Shown here piece by piece: positions 5,488 through 61,600 of a stretch of 64,000 nt of DNA (position 1 is its first letter; every line of letters begins with the position of its first letter). The stretch is from assembly GCA_021648525.1 (NCBI GenBank), contig JAKISP010000008.1:13744-77743 (forward strand). Direction: 5' to 3'. The position numbers and the translations under genes are program-made. Source of the DNA: Gammaproteobacteria bacterium. Lineage in GTDB: Bacteria; Pseudomonadota; Gammaproteobacteria; SZUA-140. Below the pieces are notes generated by a model. The model searched no databases. It was not told the origin of the DNA and worked only from the letters and a program-made list of their open reading frames with translations.

Positions 5488-7752
5488 TCATCTATATTGC
5501 GATGCCTCAGCCAATACTGGGCGATACGCACCACAAAACTCAATCACTTTATTCGCGGGCATCGGTCTTGCAAAATAATATCCCTGAAAATTGTCACAAC
5601 CATTTTCAAGTAAAAACTCCATCTCTTCTTTTGTTTCGACCCCTTCAGCAATCAATTCAAGCCCCAGGTTATGGGACATACCAATAATCGTTTTCACAAT
5701 ATGGGCATCATTAATATTCGTTGTGATATCGCTAACAAAAGATTTATCGATTTTAAGCCGATCAAGCGGTAACTTTTTCAAATAGGCCATTGAAGAATAA
5801 CCGGTACCAAAATCATCAATTGAAAAAAGCACACCAACCGCTTTTAACGTCTCAATCTTACTCACTGTTTCAGCCGTTTGATCTAACAAAATGTTCTCTG
5901 TCAATTCCAGTTCAAGTACATCACCACTCATTTCCATCTCATTTAATAGCCCTTTAACATATTCAACAAAGCTATCTTGATGAAACTGCTTAGGGCTCAC
6001 ATTAATCGCCAGCGTACCGAGCGCCAACCCTTCCGCCTGCCATTGTTTAAACTGCGCCAAACCATGCTGTAGCACCCACTCTCCCATCGGAATAATCAGC
6101 GCACTCTCTTCTGCAATCTCAATAAAGTCACCCGGAAAGACCATCCCTTTAACCGGATGATTCCAGCGAATAAGTGCCTCAACACCCGTTACTCCGCTTA
6201 TTGCATTAATTTGCGGCTGATAATGTAGCTCTAATTCATTGTTTTCAATTGCATGCCTCAATTCTGTCTGAGTACGTAAGCGCTGCTCTACTTCTTGCTG
6301 CATACTCGGCATAAAAAAACGAATCGCATTACGTCCAGCATCCTTTGCACGGTACATCGCAGTATCAGCGTGTTTCAGCACATCATCCGCCGTCTGCTCT
6401 TCCTGAGGAAACAGACTCACACCAACACTCGGCGTTAAATAATGTAGCTGTCCGGTAACCTCGTAAGGCTCTAACAACACATCCTTAAGTTTTTCCGCCA
6501 GACTTTGCGCCCGCTCAGCCGCCACCCGCTGATCGTTACCAATATTAACCGCCATCACAACAAACTCATCACCACCGAGGCGAGCCACCTCATCTTCCTC
6601 GCGGATACTTCGACTAAGGCGGGCCCCTATCTCTTTTAAAATTTCATCACCTATTTGATGCCCAAGCGAATCATTAATTGCCTTGAAGTGATCACAATCA
6701 AAAAAGAATAACGCACCGTAGTTGTTTTGACGTTGAGCGAGCATAAATGTCTTTCGCAATTGATCAACAAAATAGTTACGATTATAAAGCCCGGTCAGAC
6801 CGTCGTGGTGTGCCAGAAATTTTAAATTTTCTTCTGCTATTTTGCGTTGCGTGATATCGGTGCTCAGTCCAATCAAACCGCTCACAACGCCATCACTATT
6901 TGTCAATCTTATTTTTCTTATTTCAAAATCGTGTAAACGACCATCAGAAAACGTCAGTGTCTCGTACGAATGGTGCGCCCCTTCCTGTCCTAGTGCGGTC
7001 TCATCTGAAGCAAGAAAACCGAGCACAGAGTTCTCTTCATCTGGGTAAATTTCAGCATAGTGATCAACTGAAAGAAACTCCTCTTCCGACATATCAAGCG
7101 CATCACAGGTTGCCTTATTAACAAACAGCAATCGACCACAACTATCCTGTAACCAGATCCCCATTGGCGCATTATCAAGAATCAATTGCAGGATGCGTTT
7201 TTTCTCCATCAAATCTAGTTCTGATATTTTTCTTGTGGTCACATCCTGGCAAACACCCATCACAAATTCTGGCTGACCAGCTGCATCACGAAACACCTCA
7301 GCTCGCTGCTCAACCCACAGTGTTTCGCCTTTGCGAGTAAAGATTCGATGCTCCATCGAGCCAACTGAATGTCGCTTAAGCACTCTCTTAAGTGCTTTTT
7401 CTACCCTGAGACGATCATCAGGATAGATGCAGCTCATGTAAAATTCACGGTCCATCTCAAACGAGCCAGGCTCATAACCCAGCATCTCAAATATCTCGTC
7501 ACTCCACTCGACCCTGTCTTGCTCAACATGCCAGACCCATGGTGCTGTTTTAGAGATGCGTCGATAGTTTGAGATAAGGTCCAGTTTTTCCTGCGACATT
7601 TTTTGCAGCTGATTTAACATCTGCATATTTTTCGAAAGACGGTACAGACACACCAGTAGTGACACGATGACAATAAGGCTTACACCTATAATCGTCATAA
7701 TGAACATGAGGCTAGAGCACTGATCAATAAGGTGCTGACTAGAAAGCAGCAC
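5488..7752 (-). CDS. Membrane-anchored PAS/PAC-GGDEF-EAL c-di-GMP signalling protein
   Basis: A 754-aa ORF with an N-terminal TM segment, PAS-like regions, a GGDEF motif (RLGGDEFVV) and EAL-domain motifs (ELELTENIL, QGYYFARP). Confidence 0.8.
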   Translation of the reverse strand: MLLSSQHLIDQCSSLMFIMTIIGVSLIVIVSLLVCLYRLSKNMQMLNQLQKMSQEKLDLISNYRRISKTAPWVWHVEQDRVEWSDEIFEMLGYEPGSFEMDREFYMSCIYPDDRLRVEKALKRVLKRHSVGSMEHRIFTRKGETLWVEQRAEVFRDAAGQPEFVMGVCQDVTTRKISELDLMEKKRILQLILDNAPMGIWLQDSCGRLLFVNKATCDALDMSEEEFLSVDHYAEIYPDEENSVLGFLASDETALGQEGAHHSYETLTFSDGRLHDFEIRKIRLTNSDGVVSGLIGLSTDITQRKIAEENLKFLAHHDGLTGLYNRNYFVDQLRKTFMLAQRQNNYGALFFFDCDHFKAINDSLGHQIGDEILKEIGARLSRSIREEDEVARLGGDEFVVMAVNIGNDQRVAAERAQSLAEKLKDVLLEPYEVTGQLHYLTPSVGVSLFPQEEQTADDVLKHADTAMYRAKDAGRNAIRFFMPSMQQEVEQRLRTQTELRHAIENNELELHYQPQINAISGVTGVEALIRWNHPVKGMVFPGDFIEIAEESALIIPMGEWVLQHGLAQFKQWQAEGLALGTLAINVSPKQFHQDSFVEYVKGLLNEMEMSGDVLELELTENILLDQTAETVSKIETLKAVGVLFSIDDFGTGYSSMAYLKKLPLDRLKIDKSFVSDITTNINDAHIVKTIIGMSHNLGLELIAEGVETKEEMEFLLENGCDNFQGYYFARPMPANKVIEFCGAYRPVLAEASQYR

Positions 7753-8097
7753 AAAAAAGCAGCCAACAATCGCATCAAATTCTGCAACGCAGGATTATCT
7801 TCCAACACCATTAACCATGCAAAATAAGTGCCTTTTATTTTATTCAGATATAATAATATTCCACTCTAATTGATAGCGTGAGTCCGACGAAAATCTATAG
7901 GGTACCTCTATTCATAATCAGCCGAATCCATAGCTACTTCAAAATTATAGGTAAGATAGATGGAAAATCAGGCAGAACCAGTCATCACAACAGTCCAGAT
8001 CAAAAAAGAACACCCTCAGTAGTTCCAACCCTCCCACTATTTTGTTAGCATTCCCTTCAATTTCGAAGTACCCCCAACCATACAAAGTGAGGATAAG

Positions 8098-8436
8098 ATG
8101 AAACCCCTGACCATGCTGAGCGCAGCCACCATCATTGCAGCCATAACAGGCTGCTCTGTCTCCAACGACTTCACCCCGGTTGCCGGTAATTCCGGTGAAG
8201 AGATTTTTAGTAATGCCTGTATTGACTGCCACACACCTGAAAATGGCTATATTTATGACCTTTCGCCAGAGAGGGCCAATGTTGAAACCATCGCAACGAT
8301 CATCAGCAAAGGCGAAATGGTGATGCCTGCATTTCCTAATATTCAGGGTGCTGAACTCACCGCGATCAGTGAGTTTGTACTAGCGAAGAATAAACCTGTT
8401 AAATCTGAAGAAGAGACAGAAACAGCGAGCGAATAA
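8098..8436 (+). CDS. Mono-haem c-type cytochrome, probable lipoprotein
   Basis: 112 aa, with a signal peptide and lipobox (AAITGCSV), a single CIDCH haem-binding motif, and a downstream Met (MVMPAF) as a possible sixth ligand. Confidence 0.6.
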   Translation: MKPLTMLSAATIIAAITGCSVSNDFTPVAGNSGEEIFSNACIDCHTPENGYIYDLSPERANVETIATIISKGEMVMPAFPNIQGAELTAISEFVLAKNKPVKSEEETETASE

Positions 8437-8455
8437 TAGCGACAAAAAGCACTCA

Positions 8456-8484
8456 AATGGGCGTCACTCCGACGCCCATTTTAC
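8456..8484 (+). terminator. Rho-independent terminator hairpin after the cytochrome c gene
   Basis: Inverted repeat aaatgggcgtc-actcc-gacgcccattt followed by tt. Confidence 0.5.
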
Positions 8485-8718
8485 CTCCTGCCTCACCGCT
8501 CCAGATACTGCCCCCCCCATTCAATTACGCAAAATATTCAACACGCCGCGTAACACCATTCCATAGCACCAAAATAAACCCCTGATTTAACAATTAGTTA
8601 TTAAACGTATTCATCCACTGGTATTGTTAATGCTTTAACTGGCAGAAGCACACCAACTGGTCGATATATACTAGTATCGTCCATACAAAGCGCATAAACT
8701 TAACGTTAGCGAGGTGGC

Positions 8719-9774
8719 ATGATGCAAAATGCAGATAATCCAATGGGAACCGATGGCTTTGAGTTCATCGAATATACCGCCCCTGACACCCGTGCGCTTG
8801 AAGCACTCTTCACCCAGTTGGGTTTCACCCCGGTGGCACAACACCGCTCCAAAGATGTGGTGCTCTATCGCCAGGGCAGCATCAACTTCATTATCAATCA
8901 CGAACCGGACAGCTTTGCACAAAGCTTTGCAACGGTACATGGGCCGTCCTGTTGCGCCTTTGCGATCCGCGTTGAAGATGCCGCCTTTGCCTACAGTCGC
9001 GCGATTGAACTCGGTGCCGAACCATTCAAAGGTAAAGTCGGCCCAATGGAGCTTAATATCCCTGCGATTCGTGGTGTCGGTCGCAGCGTGCTCTATCTGA
9101 TAGACCGTTATGAAGGCCGATCGATCTACGACGTTGATTTTGTGCCAATCGAAGGGGTCGATTCCAACCCCAGTGGGGCAGGGCTACTGGAGGTCGACCA
9201 CCTAACGCATAATGTTCACAACGGTCGGATGGATGAATGGGCTCATTTTTACGAAAAACTGTTCGGTTTCCGCGAAATCCGTTATTTTGATATCAGCGGT
9301 CAAAAGACAGGACTCAAGTCACGTGCCATGACCAGCCCATGCGGCAAAATCCGCATCCCCATCAATGAACCGTCCGATGACAAATCACAGATTCAGGAGT
9401 ACCTCAACGCCTATCATGGCGAAGGGATTCAGCACATCGCGCTCACCAGTGACAACATCTACCAAAGCGTCGACCTGCTCAAGGCTAACGGCATCGAACT
9501 CCTTGATGCACCCGACACCTATTATGCAATGGTCGATGAACGACTACCAGGCCACGGCGAACCGCTTGAAGAACTAAAAAAGCGCCGTATCCTGATCGAT
9601 GGTGACCTTGAAAATAAAAAAGGGATGTTGCTGCAGATCTTCACCCAAACCGTGATCGGCCCAATCTTTTTTGAGATCATCCAGCGCAAAGGCAACGATG
9701 GGTTTGGCGAAGGCAACTTTCGCGCCCTGTTTGAATCGATTGAGCGGGATCAGATCAAACGAGGGGTGATTTAA
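8719..9774 (+). CDS. hppD: 4-hydroxyphenylpyruvate dioxygenase
   Basis: [12 protein letters not shown]-terminal motif and the characteristic C-terminus [19 protein letters not shown], 351 aa. Confidence 0.9.
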
Positions 9775-10896
9775 ATGCCCACCTGGATCACATTACCACG
9801 TAGCGAAGGCGAAACCTCGCGCCAGGCACATACTGACCTGCCAGCCAACAGCTTCGAACGTGAACTCGGCAAAGAGGGCTTTTTTGGCCCTGCCACGCAG
9901 ATGTATCACAAACATGCACCCACTGGCTGGAGTGAATTTAAGGGCGCGTTGAAACCACGTGCCTTTGACTGCACAAAACTTGATCAGCTTTCAGCCACAC
10001 CATGGGATGCAACGCAATTGCTCGGCAACGATCACACCAGGATTCGCTTCTGGCGCACCAATCAGAACATGGATCAGCTGGTACGTAACGCCGACGGCGA
10101 CGAACTGCTCTTTATCCACCAGGGTGAAGCAGAACTTTTTTGTGACTACGGTCACCTCTCGATTCGTGAAGGAGACTATGTGATGCTACCACGAGGCACC
10201 ATGTGGCGCATCGAAACCAGGGCCGAACTCAGCATGTTGATGATCGAGGCAACCAATGACAGCTTTACCCTGCCAGAAAAGGGAATCGTCGGACATCACG
10301 CCATCTTTGACCCAGCGGTACTCGACACCCCTGAAATTAACGACCTCTTTCGCGCACAACAGGACGAAACAGCATGGCGCGTCGCCGTTAAACGACGTAA
10401 TCAATTTTCAGCGATCACCTACCCCTTTAATCCACTCGATGCGATTGGCTGGCATGGCACCTTAATGCCACTGCGAGTTAACTGGCGTGACATCCGCCCA
10501 CTGATGAGCCACCGCTATCACCTGCCACCGTCGGCACATGCCACCTTTGTCAGCTCACGCTTTCTGGTCTGCACCTTCTGCCCGCGTCCGATGGAGAGCG
10601 ATCCCGGCGCACTCAAGGTGCCGTTTTTTCACAGCAATGATGACTACGACGAAGTACTCTTCTATCACATGGGTGAATTCTTTTCGCGTGACAACATCCA
10701 TCCGGGTATGATGAGTTTTCACCCCAGTGGTTTTCCACATGGACCGCACCCAAAAGCACTCGCGGCCGGGGTCAAAACGAAACGTAAATCAACCGATGAG
10801 GTTGCCGTGATGATCGACACACGCGATGCACTTTCAGTCGCCCCACAGGCTGAGGAGGTAGAATGGCTAGCCTATGTCGATTCATGGAAAGAGTAG
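9775..10896 (+). CDS. hmgA: Homogentisate 1,2-dioxygenase, short form (373 aa)
   Basis: Immediately follows hppD (stop/start abut). HmgA-like cupin core (FHSNDDYDEVLFYHMGEF, HPSGFPHGPHP) and the N-terminal SFERELGKEGFFGP motif. Confidence 0.7.
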   Translation: MPTWITLPRSEGETSRQAHTDLPANSFERELGKEGFFGPATQMYHKHAPTGWSEFKGALKPRAFDCTKLDQLSATPWDATQLLGNDHTRIRFWRTNQNMDQLVRNADGDELLFIHQGEAELFCDYGHLSIREGDYVMLPRGTMWRIETRAELSMLMIEATNDSFTLPEKGIVGHHAIFDPAVLDTPEINDLFRAQQDETAWRVAVKRRNQFSAITYPFNPLDAIGWHGTLMPLRVNWRDIRPLMSHRYHLPPSAHATFVSSRFLVCTFCPRPMESDPGALKVPFFHSNDDYDEVLFYHMGEFFSRDNIHPGMMSFHPSGFPHGPHPKALAAGVKTKRKSTDEVAVMIDTRDALSVAPQAEEVEWLAYVDSWKE

Positions 10897-10917
10897 CAAA
10901 GAGAGAGGTAACAGACG

Positions 10918-33481: not shown

Positions 33482-34210
33482 TTAAACTGTTAACAACATC
33501 TTTGCACCCGCGATCACTAGCACAACACCCAGTAGCTGACGCAGTACTGGCGGTGCCAATCTTCGTACCGCCAGCTCAGAGCCCACGACAGCCCCCACCA
33601 GCGCTGCTATCACATACCAACCGATGTCATCGGGCCAGGTATTTACCGTCACCATATGCCCCGCTAAGCCCGCTGCTGAGTTCACCAGAATAAAAGCAGC
33701 AGCAATCGCGGCATTGGTACGCATCTGCGTCCAACGTAACCATAAGAGCAGCGGACTGAGGTAAATCCCCCCACCGACACCAGTCAACCCAGAGATAAAC
33801 CCAAGCACGCCGCCCACTGGTAATGACACAGAGAGCGTTGGCTCAACACATTCACGCTCATTACTAACCCTGATAAAGAAAGAGAATGAAGCAAGCATTA
33901 ACGCTGCGCCCATGATGTACTGGAACAGACTGTCACCCGGTGTCAGGGTCCCGCCCCAGAATGCCATTGGCATCGAGGCGATTGCGATGGGCAGGAATAT
34001 CCGCCACGAAAAATAGTCAGCACGATAAAGACGGACGAGTACGAGCGAGGCAACAAATAAATTCATCGTTAAGGCGGCTGGCTTCATCACCTCAGGGGCA
34101 AGACCAAACAGCGCCATCGCCGCCAGATACCCCGAAGCCCCACCATGTCCAACAGAGGAATAAAGCATCGCCATCACACAGATCATCAACAGTAATACAA
34201 AATATTCCAT
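33482..34210 (-). CDS. TSUP (TauE/SafE) family sulfite/anion exporter
   Basis: 242-aa polytopic protein with repeated Gly-rich TM motifs (GHGGASGYLAAMALFGL, TGVGGGIY). Confidence 0.7.
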   Translation of the reverse strand: MEYFVLLLMICVMAMLYSSVGHGGASGYLAAMALFGLAPEVMKPAALTMNLFVASLVLVRLYRADYFSWRIFLPIAIASMPMAFWGGTLTPGDSLFQYIMGAALMLASFSFFIRVSNERECVEPTLSVSLPVGGVLGFISGLTGVGGGIYLSPLLLWLRWTQMRTNAAIAAAFILVNSAAGLAGHMVTVNTWPDDIGWYVIAALVGAVVGSELAVRRLAPPVLRQLLGVVLVIAGAKMLLTV

Positions 34211-34480: not shown

Positions 34481-34954
34481 ATGCAGCTAACCCTGTATAC
34501 GGACTATTCGTTTAGAGTGCTGCTCTACCTCGGCGTCAATCGAGACAGACTATGCACCATAGCGGAAATATCCGAACGTTGCGCTGCCACTCAGAACCAC
34601 CTGGTAAAGGTGGTACACAATCTTGGACGCGAAGGCTATATCCAGACAATGCGCGGCCGTACGGGTGGCATCAGGCTAAAAAAAGAGCCTGAAGAAATCA
34701 ACCTCACTGAGATTATCCGCTGCACCGAAGTTAATCTAAATATCGCTGAATGCCTACGTGAAAATAACACTTGCCACATCACTGAGGTTTGCAAAATAAA
34801 AAATATTTTTAAAGAAGCACAAAGCCAGTTTATCCAGACATTAGACCGCTATACCGTAGCAGACCTGTTAAAAGACAAAGAACAATTAAGCGAAATTTTT
34901 GATGACAAAATCATTCGCAGGATCGACCTTAGTACCGGCACAGACGGCATTTAA
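34481..34954 (+). CDS. Rrf2-family transcriptional regulator (NsrR/IscR-like, three-Cys cluster ligand set)
   Basis: N-terminal wHTH (TDYSFRVLLYLG) and three clustered cysteines, CLRENNTCHITEVC. 157 aa. Confidence 0.75.
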   Translation: MQLTLYTDYSFRVLLYLGVNRDRLCTIAEISERCAATQNHLVKVVHNLGREGYIQTMRGRTGGIRLKKEPEEINLTEIIRCTEVNLNIAECLRENNTCHITEVCKIKNIFKEAQSQFIQTLDRYTVADLLKDKEQLSEIFDDKIIRRIDLSTGTDGI

Positions 34955-35396
34955 AGACGACTGATGCTATCAAGCAGCCCTCGTCATTCCGGTACACACG
35001 AGCCACCGTTAGCTCCCATCTTAAATGCCTTCCCAATACCATCAGTGTTAACCAGGTTTTGATCTTTAATCGTGCGGCTGATCGTATTTAGCCCTACTGG
35101 AAAACAGCCACACACCATCCGTCCAACAGCCTCTTGCCCTTGCGGTGCCACCGTTAGCAGGCTTGCGATGACTGCGCTCAACGTCTCTTAATCGCGCTAA
35201 ACCAGCTACGGCATTCGGCAGCTTCCAGCGCGATAAAGAGACCGCTATCAACCCGGCCACCTAACATACGAGAGCCCCACGATAGCATTGCAATTTATCG
35301 CAATAGAACCACGATTCCCCCTCATCGAGCCTTGTCAGTATGAAAAATGTCTCAGAATCATGCTGATTCAGGTAATTAACACCCCGCACCCCGAGG

Positions 35397-37373
35397 TCAT
35401 GGTGTGCGAGACAGGGCGTCCTGCAGGCGCTCCTTCACATTACCCACCAGTAGCTTAAGACTCGTCCTCACGCCCAGTTGCTTAAGCTTGAGCAGGTCTT
35501 CCTTTATCTCACGTTTGGCTCGCGCCATGTGCTCATGGTGGTAGTTAGTCTTCGCTAATACACCGACCTGCGGCATCTCCGCCAATCCTGAATCGCGAGC
35601 ATGCTCCTGAAAACCCTGGTTCTGCCAGAAAAAGGCACCCGGCATCGTCGTTGGTACCACCAGCACATAAAAAAGTGCACGTCCTACCAACGAAGTTGCA
35701 GTGATTAGCCCCATCACCACCAACCACGCCATCAATCCAAGGCCGCCATCTATGCCACTGGCAGCAAGCAATACGAGCAGTGCGACGCTGAGTGCAAGCG
35801 CCCCATTACGACTATGATAGGTATAACCAAAGGTGGTGCGCTGCTCAAGATGCGCCGCCGCCCCTTCGCCACCCTTTCGATCAAGATCGCGCCCATGGGC
35901 ATAGAGACCGATCGCTTCAAGAATCAAACCCAATGCCATCGGCCACGCCAGCACCGCCATCAAACCACTAAAGCTTTCGCCCTGCAGCACCAGACTGATT
36001 GCAAAGATCACCGCCACCAATACCGAACCCAAGGTCAACATGCTACCGTAAAAACTAGTCAACACCTGCCAATGGTTCCAGTACGGGCGAGCCTCAATGC
36101 GATAGATTTTATGCATCGCATAGATAAACAACGCGCCGGTTACCAACGCACCCAGCCCACAGACGTAACGCAACCCTTCTGTGAAGCCCTCAGGCACAAA
36201 CGGAACCGAGATAAAGCCCAGTACAATATAGCCAACAAATAGTCCAAAAAAGAGCGACAGTGATGCCACTTCGCGACTCACCGGTGAATACTTCAGATTA
36301 TTAAAGGCGCGGTAAAAACGGTGTGGCTTTCCAAGGTGCATGGTCGAGATTACCAGTGCGAAGCCTTGCAGACCCAGCATCGCCATCAACGTCATCGTCA
36401 CAGTAGCAGCGTTAGTCCCTTCGGATAACACTCCCAGTCCCAGTAGTGGCCCAAGAAACAACAAAAAGAATGCCCCCACCACCGCCTGTGAAATCAGGGT
36501 AAAGAGCACCAACGGGTCTTCACGTGAACGCAGCTTATTCAGACTCCATTGCTGTTTTTTCGCCGTTAACACTGCCTTCGGTTTGTACTCCCCTTCACCC
36601 TGCTCATCACGCTGATAACGTAACGGAGCGGTATCGGGGCGCGTCATTTCACGTGGCAGTGAACGCGTCTGTTGAAAGCGAATATTGGGATTGGTGATCT
36701 CAGGCGTTGGAAAACCGGGGATCTGGCTTTTCATCTGCTCACGATTTTCGGGTGCCGTTTCGATCAAACCAAAATCGAGCGCACCACCAAGACAGGCCGC
36801 TGCACAGGCAGGCTTTAACCCCTCTTCCAGGCGATCAACACACATATTACATTTAGAGACCTGGCCTTCAACAGGGTCGAGTTGTGGCGCATTATAAGGG
36901 CAAACCCAGGTACAGTAACCGCAGCCAAAACAGATTTCAGGATCCTGCAGTACCGCCCCATATTCAGCAAATTTTGTATAAGCACGGGTTGGGCAACCTT
37001 TGAGGCAGACCGGATCATCACAATGGTTACAGGCCATCGAGATATTCATCCGACTGTAGGCTGGATAGCTGCCACCCTCTACATAACCGACCGAGCGAAA
37101 ACTGATATGCGCTGGCAGTTGATTTTTTTCACTACAGGCGGCCTCACAGGCGTGACAGGCGATACAGTTATCCGAGGTAAAATGAAAACCGTGCTGTTTA
37201 TAACGATTAGGGTTTTCGCCCACAGAATCGTCACCATTAATGTTTAAACTTTCCCCAACCAGCGGGCTATTTTCATCCACTAATTCAATCGATTTCCCAT
37301 AACGATTTTGCTCCGGTGTTTTAACATCGGGAATAAAGGCGTAATCGGGTTCATCTTTACGTGTTTCAAACAT
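35397..37373 (-). CDS. Fusion protein: N-terminal four-cluster [4Fe-4S] ferredoxin (DmsB/PsrB-like) plus a C-terminal polytopic DmsC/NrfD-like membrane anchor
   Basis: Four Cys clusters (CIACHACEAAC, CNHCDDPVCLKGCP, CFGCGYCTWVCP, CNMCVDRLEEGLKPACAAAC), then ~8 TM helices. No signal peptide. Last gene of the nirB-nirD-nasA operon. Confidence 0.7.
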   Translation of the reverse strand: MFETRKDEPDYAFIPDVKTPEQNRYGKSIELVDENSPLVGESLNINGDDSVGENPNRYKQHGFHFTSDNCIACHACEAACSEKNQLPAHISFRSVGYVEGGSYPAYSRMNISMACNHCDDPVCLKGCPTRAYTKFAEYGAVLQDPEICFGCGYCTWVCPYNAPQLDPVEGQVSKCNMCVDRLEEGLKPACAAACLGGALDFGLIETAPENREQMKSQIPGFPTPEITNPNIRFQQTRSLPREMTRPDTAPLRYQRDEQGEGEYKPKAVLTAKKQQWSLNKLRSREDPLVLFTLISQAVVGAFFLLFLGPLLGLGVLSEGTNAATVTMTLMAMLGLQGFALVISTMHLGKPHRFYRAFNNLKYSPVSREVASLSLFFGLFVGYIVLGFISVPFVPEGFTEGLRYVCGLGALVTGALFIYAMHKIYRIEARPYWNHWQVLTSFYGSMLTLGSVLVAVIFAISLVLQGESFSGLMAVLAWPMALGLILEAIGLYAHGRDLDRKGGEGAAAHLEQRTTFGYTYHSRNGALALSVALLVLLAASGIDGGLGLMAWLVVMGLITATSLVGRALFYVLVVPTTMPGAFFWQNQGFQEHARDSGLAEMPQVGVLAKTNYHHEHMARAKREIKEDLLKLKQLGVRTSLKLLVGNVKERLQDALSRTP

Positions 37374-37382
37374 AGTGGTTCC

Positions 37383-39563
37383 TTAAAATGTCCTTGCCGC
37401 TTTGTTGATAACCGCTGCCGCTTCCTGCTGTGCCACCGGCTCTATCTTAATCGCACATTGCTTAAACGCAGGTTGACGTGAATGCGGATCCAGCAGGCCA
37501 AGACTGACGCGATTGACACATTCATGAAAATGAAACGGGACAAACACCGCATTAGGGGCAACACGGTGTGTCAATTGCACCAGCACCACGGCGTCACCAC
37601 GGCGTGAAATCAATCGCGCATAGGTCATATGTTCAATCCCTAACGCCGCTGCCGCATCCGGGTTCATTTCCATATAGGGGGTTGGGCTGTACTTGTTCTG
37701 ATTACCGATCTTACCGGTACGCGTACGAGTATGAAAATGCTCCACCACCCGGCCACTGTTTAACCAGAATGGAAAATCATCACACGGCACTTCATTGTTA
37801 TCAATAAACGGTAACGGGATCAATTTGGCACGCCCATCGGGATAATTAAACTTGCCATCACAATAGACACGCGCACTACCACTTTCATCATTAGCGCCCA
37901 TCGGCCACTGAAGACCACGAGCTTGCTCGATTTTTTCATGGTTCATACCCGAGATATCAAGAAAACGTCCCTTTGATAACTCACCCATCTCATCAAAAAC
38001 ATCAGAGGCATTTTCAGGAAATTTAATCTTTTGACCATTATCAAAACGTTTTGCCATCTGATTAAAAATCCACAGATCGGGCTTTGATTCACCCGGGGGA
38101 TTCACCACCTTGCTAATCAGGTTAACCCGCCGCTCAGTGTTGGTCATCACACCATTTTTCTCTGCCCACAGGCCTGCCGGAAAAAAGACATGTGCATATT
38201 CAGTCGTCTCAACATCGCGGTAGGCATCCTGCACTACCATAAACTCCAGCCGTTCAAGTGTCTTGCGAATACGAGCGGTATTCGGCATTGAGGTCATCGG
38301 GTTAGTACCGATGATCCACAGCCCTTTAATCTGACCGGTCTCGATCGCCGGAAAGATATCGGTCTGGAACATACCGCGCTTTTTTGGGAAAAATTCAGGA
38401 TCGATCCCCCAGAATTTGGCAATATCTTTTCGGTCCTGCTCTTTCTCCAGCGCACGGTAACCCGGCAGGCCAGAACAGGAAGACCACTCACGGGTACCCA
38501 TCGCATTACACTGCCCGGTGATCGATAGACTAGTCCCCCCCGGCTTACCGATGTTACCGGTAATCAGGTTCAGGCTATTAATGGCCACCACACCATCAGA
38601 ACCGTGGGTACTCTGGTTAATCCCCATGGTCCAGATGCTCATCGCCGCATTCGAATTGGCATAGAGTCGCGCCACATTACGGATGGTATCTTCATCGATG
38701 CCACAGATTTTTGATGCAGTAACCGGATCATACTCTGCCACCAGTTTCTCAAACGCATCAAAACCCGAGGTATGCGCCTTGATGTAATCGCGATCTTCAA
38801 GTCCCTCAGCCAGGATCACATGTGCCAGTGCATTCAACAGCACCAGATCGGTGCCTGGGGTAATCGCCAGATGCATATCAGCAAACTGCGCCAGCATCGT
38901 CACGCGCGGATCAACCACGATCAACGGGAAATTACGTTTTTCACGCGCCTCACGCATGCGCCAGTAGATGATCGGGTGCTGCTCTGGCAGATTGGAACCA
39001 AACGCGATCAGACAGTCGGTGTGGTTAAAATCGTCATAACAACCGGGTGGGCCGTCTGAACCAAAGCTGCGTTTATAACCCGAAACCGCCGAGGCCATGC
39101 AGAGCGTGGTATTACCGTCGTAGTTATTAGTACCAATACAGCCACGTACCAGTTTACCTAAGGTATAAAACTCTTCCGTCAGAATCTGCCCGGTCGAAAC
39201 CACTGCAAAAGCGTCCGGGCCATACTGTTGCTGGATACGTTTGATCTCGGCTGCCGTCTTATCCATTGCCGCATCCCAACTAGTCTCCTGATAGTCATCA
39301 AAGATTCTATCGCGCACTAACGGTTTATCACCACGACCTGCGGAATGAAATAGCTCATGTTCAAAGATCCCCTTAATACAGAGCTTGCCCTGATTAACAT
39401 CGGCACCGCCAACACCCCGTCCAGTGACCGCCCTGCCATCTTTGTCCAGCCCCACTTCAATTGAACACCCCGTCGAACAGTAACCACAAGTGGTGTATTT
39501 CCACTCGACAACATCCTGCACCGGCATTTTTATCGGATTTTTTATTGCGCGACCAAATAGCAT
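37383..39563 (-). CDS. nasA: Assimilatory-type (cytoplasmic, NasA/NarB family) molybdopterin nitrate reductase catalytic subunit
   Basis: N-terminal [4Fe-4S] motif CGYCSTGCS, bis-MGD oxidoreductase motifs and TGRVVEHFHTRTRTGKIG. No twin-arginine signal. 726 aa. Adjacent to nirBD. Confidence 0.8.
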   Translation of the reverse strand: MLFGRAIKNPIKMPVQDVVEWKYTTCGYCSTGCSIEVGLDKDGRAVTGRGVGGADVNQGKLCIKGIFEHELFHSAGRGDKPLVRDRIFDDYQETSWDAAMDKTAAEIKRIQQQYGPDAFAVVSTGQILTEEFYTLGKLVRGCIGTNNYDGNTTLCMASAVSGYKRSFGSDGPPGCYDDFNHTDCLIAFGSNLPEQHPIIYWRMREAREKRNFPLIVVDPRVTMLAQFADMHLAITPGTDLVLLNALAHVILAEGLEDRDYIKAHTSGFDAFEKLVAEYDPVTASKICGIDEDTIRNVARLYANSNAAMSIWTMGINQSTHGSDGVVAINSLNLITGNIGKPGGTSLSITGQCNAMGTREWSSCSGLPGYRALEKEQDRKDIAKFWGIDPEFFPKKRGMFQTDIFPAIETGQIKGLWIIGTNPMTSMPNTARIRKTLERLEFMVVQDAYRDVETTEYAHVFFPAGLWAEKNGVMTNTERRVNLISKVVNPPGESKPDLWIFNQMAKRFDNGQKIKFPENASDVFDEMGELSKGRFLDISGMNHEKIEQARGLQWPMGANDESGSARVYCDGKFNYPDGRAKLIPLPFIDNNEVPCDDFPFWLNSGRVVEHFHTRTRTGKIGNQNKYSPTPYMEMNPDAAAALGIEHMTYARLISRRGDAVVLVQLTHRVAPNAVFVPFHFHECVNRVSLGLLDPHSRQPAFKQCAIKIEPVAQQEAAAVINKAARTF

Positions 39564-39781
39564 CGTATCTCTCCTGACAATCTAACGGTTCACATCAGCC
39601 ACGCCATTGTTATGGCATCGCCTCGATGTGCCTGTTATGTTTCGATTTCTAATTCCGGCCACAAATTAGACCACCCTCGATCCGGAACTTATCCTCAACA
39701 GTCCATCCTTCAACTTTCTTAAATTCACTCATTTAACGCTGCCCTGAAGCAGCATAATTATTGTTACATGGTAACCAACTA

Positions 39782-40165
39782 CTATTTCAGCTCTACGCTG
39801 ATACGGCCGCTATCGACCTTCACTTCATAGCGTCCAGTACAGCCTTCATCAGGCCCCTGCGCCTCGCCACTCTCAAGTGAAATCTTCCAGTTGTGCAATG
39901 GGCAAGTCACGGTATAACCATGCACAATCCCCTGTGATAACGGCCCATCTTTATGCGGGCAGCTATCCCGCAGTGCAAAGATGGTGTCATCGGCGGCACG
40001 GAAAATAGCCACGTCGCCATCGGCAGTCTGTAATACACGCGAACCCAGCCTGGGGATATCGTCAACTGCCCCTACTTCTACCCAATTACTCATGATTGCA
40101 ATACCTCTCATAAAACCGTTGTGTCGCTGCTCGACGCCTGGAGGGCTGCGTGTTGCCTGACCCAC
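39782..40165 (-). CDS. nirD: Nitrite reductase [NAD(P)H] small subunit (Rieske-like)
   Basis: 127 aa with CPHKDGPLSQG...CPLHNW. Immediately downstream of nirB. Confidence 0.85.
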   Translation of the reverse strand: MGQATRSPPGVEQRHNGFMRGIAIMSNWVEVGAVDDIPRLGSRVLQTADGDVAIFRAADDTIFALRDSCPHKDGPLSQGIVHGYTVTCPLHNWKISLESGEAQGPDEGCTGRYEVKVDSGRISVELK

Positions 40166-40184
40166 CCTGCATTTATTTCATTCT

Positions 40185-42626
40185 TTAACCAGGAATCACT
40201 TTCAACGGAGTAAATTCGTTGGGTGCCGATTTACCGCTCACACGCTCAGCCCATGGATCGCTCTGTGAATACTTCTGTGATTCGATAAAACGCTCATTTA
40301 GCATCTGACGACTAGCCGCATCATCAACCACTTTCTCTTTCACATAACTCAACCCAACACGCTCAATCCACGGCGCGGTACGATCCAGGTAATGCGCCTC
40401 TTCGCGGTAAAGCTGAATAAAAGCACCGCAGTACTCTTTAACCTCTTCTTCAGTTTTAACCTTACATAACAGATCCGTTGCACGCACTTTGATGCCACCG
40501 TTACCGGCCACATGCAGCTCATAACCTGAGTCAACACAGACTACTCCAAAATCTTTAATGGTCGCTTCCGCACAGTTACGCGGACAACCAGAGACCGCAA
40601 TCTTAAACTTATGCGGCATATTGGAACCCCAGGTCAATTTCTCTAGCTGTACCCCAAGGCCGGTTGAATCCTGCGTACCAAAACGGCACCACTCAGAACC
40701 GACACAGGTCTTAACGGTACGCAATGTTTTGCCATAGGCATGTCCCGATACCATACCGGCATCGTTAAGGTCACTCCAGACCGCGGGCAAGTCTTCCTTT
40801 TTGATACCGAATAGATCGATACGCTGCCCACCCGTTACCTTCACCATCGGCACTTCAAACTTGTCTGCCACATCAGCAATCGCACGCAGTTCATTTGGCG
40901 TCGTCAGACCACCCCACATACGCGGCACCACGGAGTAGGAACCATCTTTTTGAATATTGGCGTGCACACGCTCATTAACAAAACGCGACTGTGGATCATC
41001 GACCGCTTCCGCAGGCCAGGCCGCCAGCACATAAAAGTTCAATGCCGGGCGACAGGCAGCACAACCATCCGGCTCGCGCCATTCCAGGTGTTCACGCACC
41101 GCTTGAATTGAGATCAGGTGATTATCCTTGATTGCCGCACGTACGGTGTCATGACAGTGGTCGGTACATTTGCACATCGGGGTCGCTTTGGTCGATGCCG
41201 AGTAATCACCCACTGTCGATGCCAGCAGCTGTTCCACCAGACCCGTACAAGAACCACATGAGGCTGATGCCTTGGTATGCGCACGCACTTCATCAAGGGT
41301 AAACAACCCCTCGTTGGTGATCGCCTTCACCACGCATCCTTTAGTCACGCCGTTACAACCACAGACCTCCATCTCATCACTCATCGCCGCGGCAGCATTT
41401 TCACCGCTATGGCCTGAGTCACCTAAATGCGCTTGTCCAAACATCAACGACGCACGGAAATCACTCACATCGGTCTGGTCGCGTAGCAACTGAAAGTACC
41501 ACGCACCGTCGACCGTGTCGCCGTACATCACCGCGCCACTGATCTTGTTATCCTTCAATATCAGTTTTTTGTAGACGCCGTTGGCAGCATCTTTCATCAC
41601 AATCTCTTCGGTGCTCTCATTTCCGATAAAGTCACCCGCAGAGAAAAGATCGACCCCCGTTACCTTCAATTTAGTTGAGGTCACTGAGCCTTCATAAAGA
41701 CCGATGCCATATTCAGCCAGATGATTCGCACACACCCTGGCCTGTTCGAACAATGGAGCAACCAGACCGTAAGTCTCGCCACGATGCTGTACACATTCAC
41801 CCACTGAATAGATTTTAGGGTCAAAGGTCTGCATCGTGTCATTGACAATAATACCGCGCTCGGCATGCAGACCGATACGCTCAGCCAGTTCGATATTGGG
41901 ACGAATCCCGGCAGCCATCACCACCAGATCAGCAGAAATTTCTGAGCCATCTTTAAAACGCACACCACTCACGCGATCACCACCGAGAATCTCCGCCGTC
42001 TGTGCTTCCATCAAAAAGTTCAGGCCTTTCGTTTCCAGCTCCAGCTTTAACATATCGCCCGAAACAGGATCCATCTGACGCTCCATCAAGGTATCCATTA
42101 AATGAACCACGGTGACTGTCATCCCTTGCAACATCAAACCATTAGCTGCTTCAAGCCCTAGCAGACCACCGCCAATCACAACCGCGCTTTTATGGCTTTT
42201 AGCGCACTCAAGCATCGTATCAACATCATGGATATCACGAAAACCGATCACGCCCGTTTTATCATGGCCCGGTACTGGAATAATAAAAGGGTTAGAACCG
42301 GTCGCAAGTAGCAAGCGGTCATAGGACGCTTCACTGCCATCATCCGCTATCACCTTGCGGGCTTTACGGTCAACATTAACGATTTTTTTGCCCGTATGTA
42401 GCGTAATGTTATTCTCTTCATACCACTGCCGATCATTCAGCATGATCTCATCAATGGTTTTTTCACCCGCGAGCACCGGTGAAAGCAGTATACGGTTGTA
42501 GTTACCATATGGCTCTGCGCCAAATACAGTGATGTCATATTTCTCTGGTGCGATCTTCAGCAACTCTTCAAGCGTGCGCACACCGGCCATGCCGTTTCCA
42601 ACTAGAACTAATTTTTCTTTCATCAC
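40185..42626 (-). CDS. nirB: Nitrite reductase [NAD(P)H] large subunit
   Basis: 813 aa. FAD/NAD-binding N-terminus (LVLVGNGMAG), a BFD-like [2Fe-2S] region and the sirohaem/[4Fe-4S] domain (CVGSEWCRFG, GCPRNCAE). Confidence 0.9.
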   Translation of the reverse strand: MMKEKLVLVGNGMAGVRTLEELLKIAPEKYDITVFGAEPYGNYNRILLSPVLAGEKTIDEIMLNDRQWYEENNITLHTGKKIVNVDRKARKVIADDGSEASYDRLLLATGSNPFIIPVPGHDKTGVIGFRDIHDVDTMLECAKSHKSAVVIGGGLLGLEAANGLMLQGMTVTVVHLMDTLMERQMDPVSGDMLKLELETKGLNFLMEAQTAEILGGDRVSGVRFKDGSEISADLVVMAAGIRPNIELAERIGLHAERGIIVNDTMQTFDPKIYSVGECVQHRGETYGLVAPLFEQARVCANHLAEYGIGLYEGSVTSTKLKVTGVDLFSAGDFIGNESTEEIVMKDAANGVYKKLILKDNKISGAVMYGDTVDGAWYFQLLRDQTDVSDFRASLMFGQAHLGDSGHSGENAAAAMSDEMEVCGCNGVTKGCVVKAITNEGLFTLDEVRAHTKASASCGSCTGLVEQLLASTVGDYSASTKATPMCKCTDHCHDTVRAAIKDNHLISIQAVREHLEWREPDGCAACRPALNFYVLAAWPAEAVDDPQSRFVNERVHANIQKDGSYSVVPRMWGGLTTPNELRAIADVADKFEVPMVKVTGGQRIDLFGIKKEDLPAVWSDLNDAGMVSGHAYGKTLRTVKTCVGSEWCRFGTQDSTGLGVQLEKLTWGSNMPHKFKIAVSGCPRNCAEATIKDFGVVCVDSGYELHVAGNGGIKVRATDLLCKVKTEEEVKEYCGAFIQLYREEAHYLDRTAPWIERVGLSYVKEKVVDDAASRQMLNERFIESQKYSQSDPWAERVSGKSAPNEFTPLKVIPG

Positions 42627-42889
42627 CCATGATCCCTGAATACAAAAGCTATACAGCGCATTAGCAATTACCGTACCAATGCCAACAGGCTATTTAACTG
42701 ATTGTTTTTTATAAAAAATAATAAATAAAACTAGTCATACAACCATTCCATTGCAGCGACTCCGCGCCAATCAAGTGCATTAAACAAGACTATGCGCCAT
42801 TTCTGCACAAGAAAAAACATAGCAGATAACCCGACAGTGATAATGCGCTAGAATGGCAACTCTAAAACAGCCACAACAACAAGCAGTTA

Positions 42890-58609: not shown

Positions 58610-61600
58610 TCAAGCCACATTCTGCCATGCAGCTGCAATCACAGGTTGAAGTCCTGTCTGTAAATCAGGTGAAAGCGTCAGTTCACCCAGTGCAGGTGGG
58701 TTAAATGCCGCCATCGCACTGACTAATTGATCGACCTGGGTATCAAGCAGGTAAGCACCATCAGCCACTTCAAAACGATCTACTTGATAAGCATCATCAC
58801 CATACCAATTTGAAACAACCAGTTGATCGGCGGTGCCAATCACACTCACATTCAGGTTATCGCCATTTCTGCTGAACCATAATTGCTCTGTCGATATATC
58901 CGCACCAAAAAGTGCCATATCTTCCGTTGCGCCATAAACAGCCGGTTGTGCATCCTGTGCGTTATAATCGTTGACTACATCACTGCCATCGCCCCTTCCA
59001 AAGATATAAACATCGCTGCCCGCTCCACCACTCAGGGTGTCGTTGCCAGACCCACCAACCAGTGTGTCGTTGCCGGTTGAGCCAGTCAGACTATCGTTAC
59101 CAGCCATGCCGTAGATCGCAGCGATATTCACCAGCGTCGTACCACTAAAGTCGAGCGTGTTGCTGTAGTTATTGTTCTGAATGATGTTGCTGCCAGCGCC
59201 GCCATCGATTACTTCGACGGTGTTGCTACCTGAGAAGGTGCTCAGTCCAATAGTGTCATCGCCTGCGCTACCTTGCAGGGTATCAATGCCATCACCACCG
59301 TTAACCCGGTCAAAACCATCGCCTTCAGTATAGAGAAACAGGTCATCACCTGCTTCACCATAAAGCTGGTCATCATCGCGGCCGCCGTAGATCTGGTCGT
59401 TGCCGCCACCGCCAAAAATAGCGTCATTACCGTCACCGCCGAAGAGGATGTCGTCACCCACTTCAGTCACGGCAACATCCTGGGTTTGATTGAGAGCCAG
59501 CACGCTCTCAGTATATGTCCAATAGGCATTGGCAGGAAAAAAACCAACGGCTTCATTCGCACCGTCCCATGTCGCAATCACCCCGCTTTCGGTATCACCA
59601 AAAAGTGTGTCATTGCCAGTCCCACCCACCAGGGTGTCGATCCCGGCACCGCCGTATAACCAGTCATTACCGGCACTGCCATACAGATAGTCCTGACCAT
59701 CTTCGCCAAAAAGCAGGTCGTTCCCGTCCATTCCCAGCAGGATGTCTTCTGCACCACCACCATCGAGGTAGTCGTGACCGAGGCCACCCACCAGCCAGTC
59801 AACCCGCGATGAGCCCACCAGGGTGTCATTGCCACCTTCACCATAGAGGTAGGCACCTTCTGCACCGGCAACCGCTGAATCTGTTTGAGAGGAAGCGGAG
59901 AGGGTGTCATTGCCTTCACCACCGTAGAGCTGAATGCCCGGGTTGTTGGCAATATCCAGCACATTAACAAAATCGTTTTGGTCACCGACATAAACAGCAT
60001 CAATATTGCTGGCGAGGGTGATCTGGTTCGGGGTGAGCGGGTCGGCTCCCGCCAGGTCTGCGTTAAAGTTTGAGGCTGTCATGCCATCGATCTGTAAAGC
60101 GTCTTCGTTACCAATAAAGGTGGTGATCGTGGTGGTTGCTACCGGTTCGGGGGTCTCGATCAGGTTAATCCCGAGGTCGCCGTTGTTAAAGTTTTCAACA
60201 GAGACAACACCATCCACGCCGATAATCTGCAGGAAGTTGCCGTTGAGGCGGTAGGTTAATGAGCCGTCGTCGTTCTGGTATTCATTGGCGGTGGCGGTCT
60301 CAAGGCCACCGATCAATACGTTGCCGTCATAGATGATCTGGCCGAGGCCATCTGTATCGCGAATCAGGTCTGAACCGTCACCGCTGTTGAAGATGTAGGT
60401 ATCCATGCCGGTGCCACCTTCGAGTACATCGGCAACATTGTCACCAGCACCGCCGATCAGAATGTCGTCACCCGCACCGCCATAGAGGCGGTCGGTACCG
60501 CCGCCGCCATTGAGAACGTCGTTGTCGTTACCGCCGTAGAGGTTGTCATCGTTGGCATCACCGCTGAGGATATCGTCACCGGTGCCACCCAGCAGGGTGT
60601 CATTGCCAGCGCCGCCTAGCAGGGTGTCTGTACCGGCGTTGCCTTCAATATAATCAGCACCTGCATTTCCCGAAATGATGTCGTTACCGGCACCGCCGTA
60701 GAGGTAATCGCCCTGATTGCCACCGTTGATTGTGTCTGGGTTTTCATCACCAAAGGTGTAGCGAACTGCACTTGGTAAAATTGTAGATCCGAAATCAAAG
60801 GTTCCTGCCTGTATATTTGAACCTTGATCGTCATAGTATTCAATCCTGCCATCTGTTGTTGGTACCAAATAATGGTCAATACTATTTCTGCTTATTAACT
60901 GGTTAAGTACGTAGGCCTTATCTAGCAAAAATTGCTCGGTAAAATTATCAGCGCCCCATTCACTGGATAAATAGAGACCTGCATTCCCGGTAATCGCGAA
61001 AGGGTTGAGGTTAACCAGTGCATAGCGGTAGGCATACCCTGCCGCTGAGTTATCCATCGCAGCATTGGCCAGGCTATTAACATCTACGATGCTGACAGCA
61101 CCGACGGAATTCGTAAACAGGCCGCTTGCCTCTATGGCTTGTATCTGTGTGTAGAGGGCATCACGGTCGTCGATTGCCACGTTTCCAGTCACACCAAAAA
61201 TACCACTGAGCATATCGATGGTGGTTTCCAGGCTATTGGCGTTAATATAGGTGCTGTTTTCTATAAAGCTGGTAATGGTGTTGATGCCGTTGGGGTCGGT
61301 GTTGAGATTGGAGTCCAATGTGGCGAAGAGGTTGTAGACGGCGAGGGAGTCGGTCATTGCGACTATATCATGAGAATCGAGCGGCCCTTGATTATTACTC
61401 TCTGAAAAAATAATACCGCTAATTCCAGGCACATCACCTATCAAATGAACAAGATCACTTTCTACATTCGTATTGACACCACTGGTATTCCAATCAGTAC
61501 CGATGCTACCAGTAAGTGGCACTGGAACGCTGTTAAATAAATCAAAGAACCCTGAGCTAGTTGGATCTGTTCCAAACACATCGAATCCGGGTGAATTGTA

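Follow-up and report, generated by a model that had tools for sequence, protein, structure and literature searches.

The last two genes of a nitrite and nitrate reduction operon, found in a 64,000-nucleotide stretch of DNA from a Gammaproteobacteria bacterium (SZUA-140; assembly GCA_021648525.1, contig JAKISP010000008.1, positions 13,744 to 77,743; hereafter the window), encode a Nas-type molybdoenzyme of 726 residues, termed here NasA-726, and a 658-residue protein in which a ferredoxin domain with four [4Fe-4S] clusters is fused to a membrane anchor. Together these two polypeptides probably constitute a three-module, membrane-bound quinol:nitrate oxidoreductase that has its catalytic side in the cytoplasm and serves nitrate assimilation. 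A preliminary description of the same DNA had proposed a cytoplasm-facing Nas-type enzyme wired to a ferredoxin/anchor protein, and this proposal is supported by the synteny, the co-inheritance of both proteins, the separate clade of the catalytic subunit, the charge topology, the conservation of the quinol-site residues and the PsrB- plus PsrC-like fold of the fused subunit. From these data we infer the docking of the two proteins, quinol as the electron donor, nitrate as the substrate and the assimilatory role.

In the textbook view, nitrate assimilation in bacteria relies on soluble reductases that receive their electrons from NAD(P)H or from ferredoxin/flavodoxin. Wells et al. (2020) found no enzyme of the Nas/Nap/Aio/Fdh clade associated with canonical four-cluster or anchor subunits and considered NasA/NasC exclusively assimilatory (PMC7331816); the first of these generalizations is contradicted by the module described here, which is widespread and not rare.

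Pairing of NasA-726 with the fused subunit

The operon occupies positions 35397-42623 of the minus strand, where nirB, nirD, the NasA-726 gene and the fusion gene are co-directional, the open reading frames (ORFs) and domain scores agreeing with the layout first described. The gene for NasA-726, a molybdenum-bis-pyranopterin guanine dinucleotide (Mo-bisPGD) enzyme, lies at 37383..39563 (-), with an AGGAG ribosome-binding site 8 nt before its ATG. A gap of 9 nt separates its stop from the start of the gene for the fused electron-transfer and anchor subunit, placed at 35397..37373 (-) on ORF, domain and motif evidence.

Homologues of the fusion protein number thousands. The best 120 protein clusters align with at least 62% identity across at least 91% of its length, so at least 120 distinct clusters are found at this identity, and the best 80 loci of species-representative genomes all contain full-length fusions (their best aligned segments being 56–95% identical). 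The B and C modules share a single ORF, both in the window and in every homologue listed. Carriers belong to Chromatiaceae, Ectothiorhodospiraceae, Thioalkalispiraceae, Acidiferrobacterales, Thiobacillaceae, Gallionellaceae, Nitrosomonadales, Methylocaldum and Methylococcaceae, with Thiogranum longum, Sulfuriflexus mobilis and Sulfurirhabdus autotrophica as cultured examples; the module is found in both Gamma- and Betaproteobacteria, with more remote forms in Nitrospirota and Leptospirillia.

A closer look at the loci having at least 2.4 kb of DNA upstream of the fusion gene revealed a NasA-726 homologue (at least 60% identical) directly upstream and on the same strand in 61 out of 61 cases. 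The identity of these catalytic genes to NasA-726 is 69–97%, the median gap between the two genes is 35 nt, and from locus to locus both proteins vary in parallel in their identity to those of the window (r = 0.86). Of these loci, 48 contain NirB. The pairing is far beyond chance. Distant fusions (40–50% identity), obtained by an exhaustive search of 50%-identity representatives, were examined at four loci, in Nitrospirota, Leptospirillia and two unassigned lineages, and each of the four clusters has a Nas-type molybdoenzyme gene. It stands directly upstream of the fusion gene in three of them and, in the fourth (L089), about 3.8 kb off on the opposite strand. Further genes of these clusters encode P-II, an MFS transporter, NirBD or a NirA-like reductase, a PP2C/Ser-Thr kinase and the MobA, MoeA and Moa proteins; in L089 the nitrite reductase is of the ferredoxin-type, NirA-like kind and NirBD is absent from the locus.

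The alternative that the fusion protein serves another molybdoenzyme, and clusters with anchors unrelated to Nas, was rejected, given the 61/61 synteny with a NasA-726 homologue and the domain searches of the 64-kb window, in which no second molybdoenzyme was found besides the nas locus. No member of the fusion family was seen in the plasmid collection, which returned only true DmsB/DmsC and other Nas enzymes (identity of 40% or less). A single-piece tblastn match to fusion residues 59-477 (29% identity) in Proteus mirabilis (NZ_OL790811.1 and NZ_OL790812.1, PLSDB) points to a further DmsB-DmsC fusion that does not belong with the Nas-linked proteins.

The catalytic subunit contains the Pfam domains Molybdop_Fe4S4, Molybdopterin and Molydop_binding. 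Its [4Fe-4S] cluster (FS0) motif is the CGYCSTGC reported in the preliminary description, placed at residues 26-33, together with Cys62 within KLCIKG. Because this motif begins already at residue 26, there is no room for a twin-arginine translocation (Tat) signal; NasA-726 lacks the RRxF motif, its ORF is not extendable upstream, and in none of the 63 family members is the first cluster preceded by a twin-arginine motif, in line with the absence of a Tat signal noted before. At the molybdenum site LCMASAV aligns with the identical LCMASAV (Cys140-Met141, Mo ligand) of Desulfovibrio desulfuricans NapA, the corresponding stretch of FdhF being LCHAPTV (Cys-His), and MGINQ (Met308) is likewise kept with respect to this NapA. 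CMAS/A is present in at least 42 of the 63 family members.

Among the NCBIfam models the top match of NasA-726 is Fdh-alpha, with 570 bits against a cut-off of 666, and the scores for NasC (501.4 against 1100), haloarchaeal NasA (464.4 against 1000), NapA (426.8 against 904), dmsA_ynfE (137.9 against 777.7), narG (42.2 against 1084) and narH (46.2 against 524) also stay below their cut-offs. Since all these scores are sub-cut-off, the assignment of nitrate as the substrate is based on motifs and context. The Fdh-alpha match, the failure to reach any nitrate reductase cut-off and a best PDB sequence match that is an FdhF could indicate that the substrate is another one (formate, chlorate, selenate, arsenite or a further oxyanion) and that the association with nirBD is incidental. 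Nevertheless the Fdh cut-off is missed too, and the enzyme has the NapA-type Cys-Met pair and not the Cys/Sec-His (Sec, selenocysteine) of formate dehydrogenases, in addition to the conserved MGINQ. Nitrate is also favoured by the genes linked to the enzyme in several phyla (for nitrite reductase, nitrate transporter and P-II) and by its nearest annotated relatives, which in the plasmid/chromid collection are assimilatory nitrate reductases (identity of 40% or less). A different substrate is thus regarded as highly improbable.

The phylogeny of the catalytic subunit had been proposed as a check, and in a neighbour-joining tree the fusion-linked enzymes, those of Nitrospirota and Leptospirillia included, are monophyletic (bootstrap 100/100), forming a separate Nas-type clade with at least 53% identity inside and at most 43% to other enzymes. 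The references were BFD-type NasA proteins of the same loci, the Paracoccus yeei NasC encoded in a nasB-nasG-nasH-nasC-like cluster, a NasC-like protein of Brevibacillus, a nitrate reductase of Hymenobacter and E. coli NapA and FdhF. Members of the clade are devoid of the C-terminal Fer2_BFD [2Fe-2S] domain, unlike the NasA proteins of 884-934 residues from some of the same loci. Two family members carry the JGI/UniRef label 'nitrate reductase (quinol-dependent) catalytic subunit', other labels being 'assimilatory nitrate reductase catalytic subunit' and 'YjgC'; the quinol wording is a probable by-product of renumbering of Enzyme Commission entries and was not used as evidence.

Modules and predicted orientation of the fused subunit

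The fusion protein consists of an N-terminal extension (residues 1-59), a DmsB/PsrB-like domain for four [4Fe-4S] clusters (residues 60-205; 36759..37196, -), a linker, an eight-helix DmsC/NrfD-like membrane domain (residues 286-576; 35646..36518, -) and a C-terminal tail, with the ferredoxin domain and the tail both predicted to be cytoplasmic. Pfam identifies Fer4_11 (residues 112-202) and DmsC (PF04976, residues 285-571, E 5e-23), and the best NCBIfam match is DmsB (TIGR02951, 154.6 bits), under the cut-off of 214.1. The 16 Cys residues are arranged in four groups (residues 70-80, 115-127, 148-158 and 175-194) and are all invariant across 96 homologues. The eight hydrophobic helices all fall within residues 286-576. 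Residues 1-60 are hydrophilic, with neither a twin-arginine motif nor a hydrophobic stretch, and the distant homologues (40–50% identical) begin right at the Fe-S domain, also without a signal peptide. The domains, Cys groups and helices therefore match the four-cluster N-terminus without export signal and the eight-helix anchor of the preliminary description.

An AlphaFold2 model built with the alignment of 96 sequences reached a mean predicted local distance difference test score (pLDDT) of 88 and a predicted template modelling score of 0.86. With an alignment of 44 close homologues the pLDDT of the Fe-S domain was only about 25–30, which was remedied by the more diverse alignment. The halves of the model match the folds of PsrB and of PsrC/ActC, respectively, PsrB and PsrC being subunits of polysulfide reductase.

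The distribution of positive charges around the helices is strongly asymmetric. In 44 members of the fusion family a mean of 22.9 Lys+Arg residues falls on one side, made up of the linker that leads into helix 1, of loops 2-3, 4-5 and 6-7 and of the C-terminal tail, and a mean of 0.4 on the other, made up of loops 1-2, 3-4, 5-6 and 7-8. This bias is the reverse of that of E. coli DmsC, which has its few positive charges in loops 1-2 and 3-4. Export of DmsC takes place together with DmsAB via the Tat pathway, and its termini are periplasmic. Because of the Lys+Arg bias, and under the positive-inside rule, the fusion family is predicted to have both termini inside, with the Fe-S domain in the cytoplasm, so that the anchor would be inverted with respect to DmsC.

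The quinone-binding site of E. coli DmsC is formed by S62, H65, S82 and E87 (PMC8076601), which align with S343, H346, S363 and E368 of the fusion protein. These four residues and several others in the cytoplasmic loops are invariant in the 96 sequences, which span several phyla, and together with the surrounding loops they make up the most conserved stretch of the membrane domain. As they flank the positively charged loop 2-3, the putative quinol site would be placed at the cytoplasmic face, on the side of the Fe-S domain.

Two further segments could be distinguished outside the two main domains. In the N-terminal extension (37197-37373), which is missing from the Nitrospirota homologues, R5, Y11, A12, L43, N46 and R57-G62 are invariant in Proteobacteria, and a motif after helix 8 (PTTMPGAFFW-N-GF-EHAR, residues 574-610; 35544-35652) is common to several phyla. 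Both are candidate docking elements for the catalytic subunit.

Regulation, electron path and physiological role

The operon opens with nirB (40185..42623, -), which encodes the large subunit of NAD(P)H-nitrite reductase (TIGR02374, 958 bits against a cut-off of 578; Pfam domains Pyr_redox_2, Fer2_BFD, NIR_SIR_ferr and NIR_SIR) and starts at the ATG at 42623, preceded by an AGGGA ribosome-binding site. It is followed by nirD (approximately 39782..40093, -), encoding the Rieske-type small subunit (TIGR02378, 95 bits against 74.65). The nirD start is probably Met25 of the listed ORF, the alternative being Met19 at 40111; the TIGR02378 alignment begins at residue 27.

A sigma-54 type -24/-12 element, TGGTACGGTAATTGCT, is located 40 nt upstream of the nirB ATG (42663..42678, -) and fits TGGCAC-N5-TTGCW at 10 of the 11 specified positions. 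When 44 nirB upstream regions (43 related loci and the window) were scored, 30 showed elements with at least 9 of 11 matches, mostly 46-93 nt before nirB, against about one expected from shuffled sequences. Upstream of the element two palindromes, TGTGCAGAAATGGCGCA (42793-42809, -) and TGCACTTGATTGGCGCG (42763-42779, -), are regarded as putative NtrC sites for their likeness, as judged by eye, to the NtrC consensus TGCACCA-N3-TGGTGCA. The sigma-54 element and both palindromes stand out as conserved islands in the comparison with an 86%-identical relative (L002), the spacer being otherwise diverged. A further block, GCCATTCTAGCGCATTA (about 42840-42856, -), is likewise conserved in L002. Sigma-70 promoter and terminator scans gave a background level only, and an Rfam scan of 33-46 kb of the window gave no real match.

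Control by NtrC and sigma-54 is typical for nitrate assimilation, as in the nas operons of Klebsiella, Azotobacter and Pseudomonas. The clusters of the relatives carry P-II, MFS nitrate transporter and molybdenum-cofactor genes, and there the MFS transporter and a PP2C/Ser-Thr kinase adjoin the operon, a pair that presumably resembles the nas cluster of Pseudomonas aeruginosa. A search of the 64-kb window gave no NarK, NrtA, P-II or nas-associated kinase homologues. Regulation and gene context point to nitrate assimilation.

In the proposed mechanism quinol would be oxidized at the DmsC-type site of the cytoplasmic face (S343, H346, S363 and E368), as the conserved residues and the topology suggest. 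Following the paradigm of PsrABC and DmsABC, the electrons would run along the four [4Fe-4S] clusters of the DmsB-like domain and, with NasA-726 docked on this domain as synteny and co-variation suggest, would enter FS0 and then the Mo-bisPGD centre. Nitrate, the substrate indicated by motifs and context, would be reduced to nitrite in the cytoplasm, and NirBD, from the same sigma-54/NtrC-type transcript, would take the nitrite to ammonium with NAD(P)H. As quinol oxidation and nitrate reduction would both occur on the cytoplasmic (N) side, an electroneutral step is expected, with no redox loop. The benefit would be that the two electrons for an acceptor at +420 mV are drawn from the quinone pool and not from NAD(P)H or ferredoxin, and electrons of the quinone pool should be cheap for organisms that make NAD(P)H/ferredoxin by reverse electron flow. 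The frequent occurrence of the module in lineages named as oxidizers of sulfur, iron and methane, uncorrected for sampling, fits this energy-saving idea but does not prove it.

A membrane location and a link to quinol are hallmarks of respiratory enzymes, and the complex could in principle be a respiratory or redox-balancing nitrate reductase, that is, an analogue of NarGHI assembled from Nas and DmsBC parts, in which assimilation is secondary or shared. Quinol electrons would then be dumped on nitrate, possibly with proton translocation via the anchor, and the nitrite would go to NirBD, in the manner of dissimilatory nitrate reduction to ammonium (DNRA), or to denitrification. The extra classical NasA that some loci have beside the module (14/86) suggests differing roles for the two enzymes, and NrfD-like subunits have been proposed as ion conductors, although ion channels are poorly defined in the DmsC-type anchors (PMC8076601). 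This scenario is opposed by the enrichment of sigma-54/NtrC-type elements ahead of the operon, by the position of the module in one operon with nirBD and in clusters with P-II, nitrate transporter and cofactor genes, and by the predicted quinol and nitrate sites, which share the cytoplasmic side and leave no redox loop. Nar- or nap-type accessory genes are absent near the operon. A respiratory enzyme is therefore considered unlikely, and the DNRA-like or redox-balancing role put forward in the preliminary description is less likely than plain assimilation, in view of the promoter elements and of the P-II, transporter and cofactor genes of the relatives.

In Paracoccus the NirD-like Rieske protein NasG supplies electrons to NasC. 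This precedent, the presence of NirB and NirD in the same operon and the NADH-linked or ferredoxin-type donors of the known Nas enzymes (PMC7331816) would be compatible with a fusion protein that merely tethers NasA-726 and relays electrons from NirB/NirD, ferredoxin or flavodoxin, its membrane domain localizing the enzyme, for example beside a nitrate transporter, with no quinol chemistry. Against such a role, the DmsC quinol-site residues and their loops are the best-conserved membrane part across several phyla. Furthermore NasA-726 lacks the C-terminal [2Fe-2S] domain of the NADH-linked NasA/NasC, and the pairing persists in L089, where the NirA-like enzyme replaces NirBD at the locus. We judge a simple tether markedly improbable.

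Traces of a classical enzyme were found next to the module. The interval that separates the fusion-gene stop from the convergent Rrf2 gene contains, as tblastn and blastn revealed, a degraded remnant of about 320 nt (approximately 34951..35270, -) of the last ~110 codons, the BFD-like [2Fe-2S] domain, of a classical 884-residue NasA. It is 68% identical over 72 residues to the protein of a close relative, L001 (tblastn), and contains a frameshift, in-frame stops and a CGSC to GGSC change. L001, whose fusion protein is 95% identical to that of the window, keeps the intact 884-residue NasA with its C-terminal BFD-type [2Fe-2S] domain (at 6126-8780), and L002 likewise retains a second classical NasA. 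With respect to L001 about 2.3 kb have been deleted in the window (breakpoints set by blastn). The statement of the preliminary description that the anchor takes the place of an NAD(P)H module thus holds for the window as it is now, but only through this recent deletion of a BFD-tailed NasA that L001 and L002 have kept. As the classical NasA was lost there, the lineage of the window now relies on the anchored enzyme alone, at least at the nas locus, and the loss of the second enzyme while the module stayed intact argues for an assimilatory role of the module. Most loci have the module alone; in the 14 of the 86 scanned sequences with a second NasA, this lies mostly directly downstream of the fusion gene.

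Several points weigh against the quinol-linked assimilatory enzyme proposed here. NasA-726 is under every NCBIfam equivalog cut-off, the neighbour-joining tree contains no cyanobacterial NarB, and the predicted orientation has the charge bias as its sole basis. A nitrate transporter was not found in the 64-kb window. NirD/NirB or a soluble ferredoxin could be an alternative donor to NasA-726, and in the genomes with a second NasA it is not evident what two assimilatory enzymes would be for, which leaves room for a non-assimilatory role.

A broader reading is that of a widespread and unrecognized class, a Nas-type enzyme plugged into the respiratory chain whose inverted anchor couples quinol oxidation to proton movement, and which serves assimilation and also energy-conserving nitrate respiration or denitrification where Nar and Nap are lacking. 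If this dual role were true, methylotrophs and sulfur and iron oxidizers now scored as 'assimilatory only' from nasA would be possible examples. We hold it to be quite unlikely. The 'single-subunit' Nas-like nitrate reductase of Methylotenera mobilis, Mmol_1648, reportedly functions in assimilation and denitrification, as cited in PMC7240106, and would, as a candidate member of the fusion-linked family, speak for a respiratory or shared role.

Known complexes and neighbouring genes

The closest system in architecture and topology is SoeABC, the sulfite:quinone oxidoreductase of Allochromatium vinosum and Aquifex aeolicus, which also combines a cytoplasm-facing Mo-bisPGD enzyme, a four-cluster Fe-S module and an inverted, heme-free anchor of the NrfD family without Tat signals. 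The module shares with it the absence of signal peptides, the predicted inversion of the anchor and the predicted N-side quinone site. On the other hand, its catalytic subunit belongs to the Nap/Nas/Fdh clade and not to the Psr/Soe group, its anchor is of the DmsC type (PF04976) with B and C fused, its context is nitrogen assimilation, and the electrons are expected to run from quinol to substrate, whereas SoeABC runs from substrate to quinone. Since the best matches of NasA-726 are NapA, Fdh and Nas, membership of the SoeA type is unlikely and the likeness is architectural only. SoeABC is the only N-side complex in a 2021 review of the NrfD family, where nitrate reductases are not listed (PMC8076601). 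If quinol-driven, the module would be the second cytoplasm-facing complex of this family after SoeABC.

From the E. coli dimethyl sulfoxide (DMSO) and selenate reductases DmsABC/YnfFGH come the closest relative of the Fe-S domain, DmsB, and the quinol residues shared with DmsC; in tblastn the fusion protein spans adjacent dmsB-dmsC genes at about 32% identity. Of the traits of DmsABC-type complex iron-sulfur molybdoenzymes, the module has the four Cys groups for four clusters and the heme-free eight-helix DmsC/NrfD anchor with quinol-site residues. It differs in being unexported, with no Tat signal and the opposite predicted orientation, in having B and C in a single polypeptide and in a catalytic partner that is not DmsA-like. 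PsrABC of Thermus thermophilus (PDB 2VPW) is periplasmic, Tat-exported and made of three separate subunits, with another catalytic lineage and substrate.

Like NasA-726, the classical NasA/NasC (paired with NasB/NasG or a NasC reductase) and the ferredoxin-dependent NarB are located in the cytoplasm, carry Mo-bisPGD with Cys as the Mo ligand and have a [4Fe-4S] cluster near the N-terminus, and they share its gene context of nirBD, a nitrate transporter (in the relatives) and nitrogen-regulated promoters. The size of NasA-726 (about 726 residues) equals that of NarB and Bacillus subtilis NasC. It differs from the classical enzymes in its identity of at most 43% (to BFD-type NasA, Paracoccus NasC and the Brevibacillus NasC-like protein), in its separate clade, in lacking the [2Fe-2S] tail and in its partner, the four-cluster/anchor protein. 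NarGHI resembles the module, as predicted, in being a cytoplasm-facing, membrane-bound, quinol-oxidizing nitrate reductase with a chain of four Fe-S clusters; however, NarG is of another lineage of the DMSO reductase family, NarH is much larger, and NarI is a di-heme b anchor that oxidizes quinol at the periplasmic face in a proton-motive redox loop, whereas the module is heme-free with a predicted cytoplasmic-face site. NasA-726 is not a NapA either, as judged from the missing Tat signal, the sub-cut-off score and the lack of nap genes in the 64-kb window.

A full-text literature search, with most subscription journals outside its reach, returned no description of a Nas enzyme with a DmsBC-type partner, and in a 2023 pangenome of Gallionellaceae nasA is co-located with nirBD, the anchor being unmentioned (PMC10734462). 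All parts come from known families; the combination, the predicted orientation and the implied electron donor are undescribed in the literature searched. With a quinol-driven enzyme, nitrate assimilation would have a different energy cost in the oxidizers of sulfur, iron and methane, for which NAD(P)H comes at the price of reverse electron flow, and metagenomic nasA matches would no longer represent one physiological type.

The spacer between nirD and the NasA-726 gene (39564-39781, -) is unusually long, with 218 nt and a predicted RNA structure of z = -2.7. It is restricted to the window and L001, where it is shorter, and is missing from L002 and L004, and was rejected as a conserved element; a lineage-specific insertion and an internal regulatory element are two possible explanations. 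Next to the operon, an Rrf2-family regulator (34481-34954, +) does not reach the cut-offs of NsrR (124.9 against 182), RirA or IscR, and 33482-34210 (-) encodes a membrane protein of the TauE/TSUP type. Among the relatives, these two genes are neighbours of the nas locus in L001 and L002 alone, the two closest ones. The reading of this regulator as NsrR and as part of the system was consequently rejected, and the nitrosative-stress context that had been proposed for the two genes is not supported. In Thiogranum longum (L083, 14203-14947) a gene for a hypothetical protein of 122 residues and a DsrC/TusE-like gene lie between the fusion gene and the second NasA.

Farther from the operon, the window contains a tyrosine/homogentisate catabolism cluster (8719-12545, +) with HPPD, an HgmA-like protein, FAA hydrolase and a GST-type isomerase; given these genes, strict lithoautotrophy of the organism is not implied. 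Two proteins with RTX calcium-binding repeats are encoded at 58610-62170 (-) and 62896-63987 (-).

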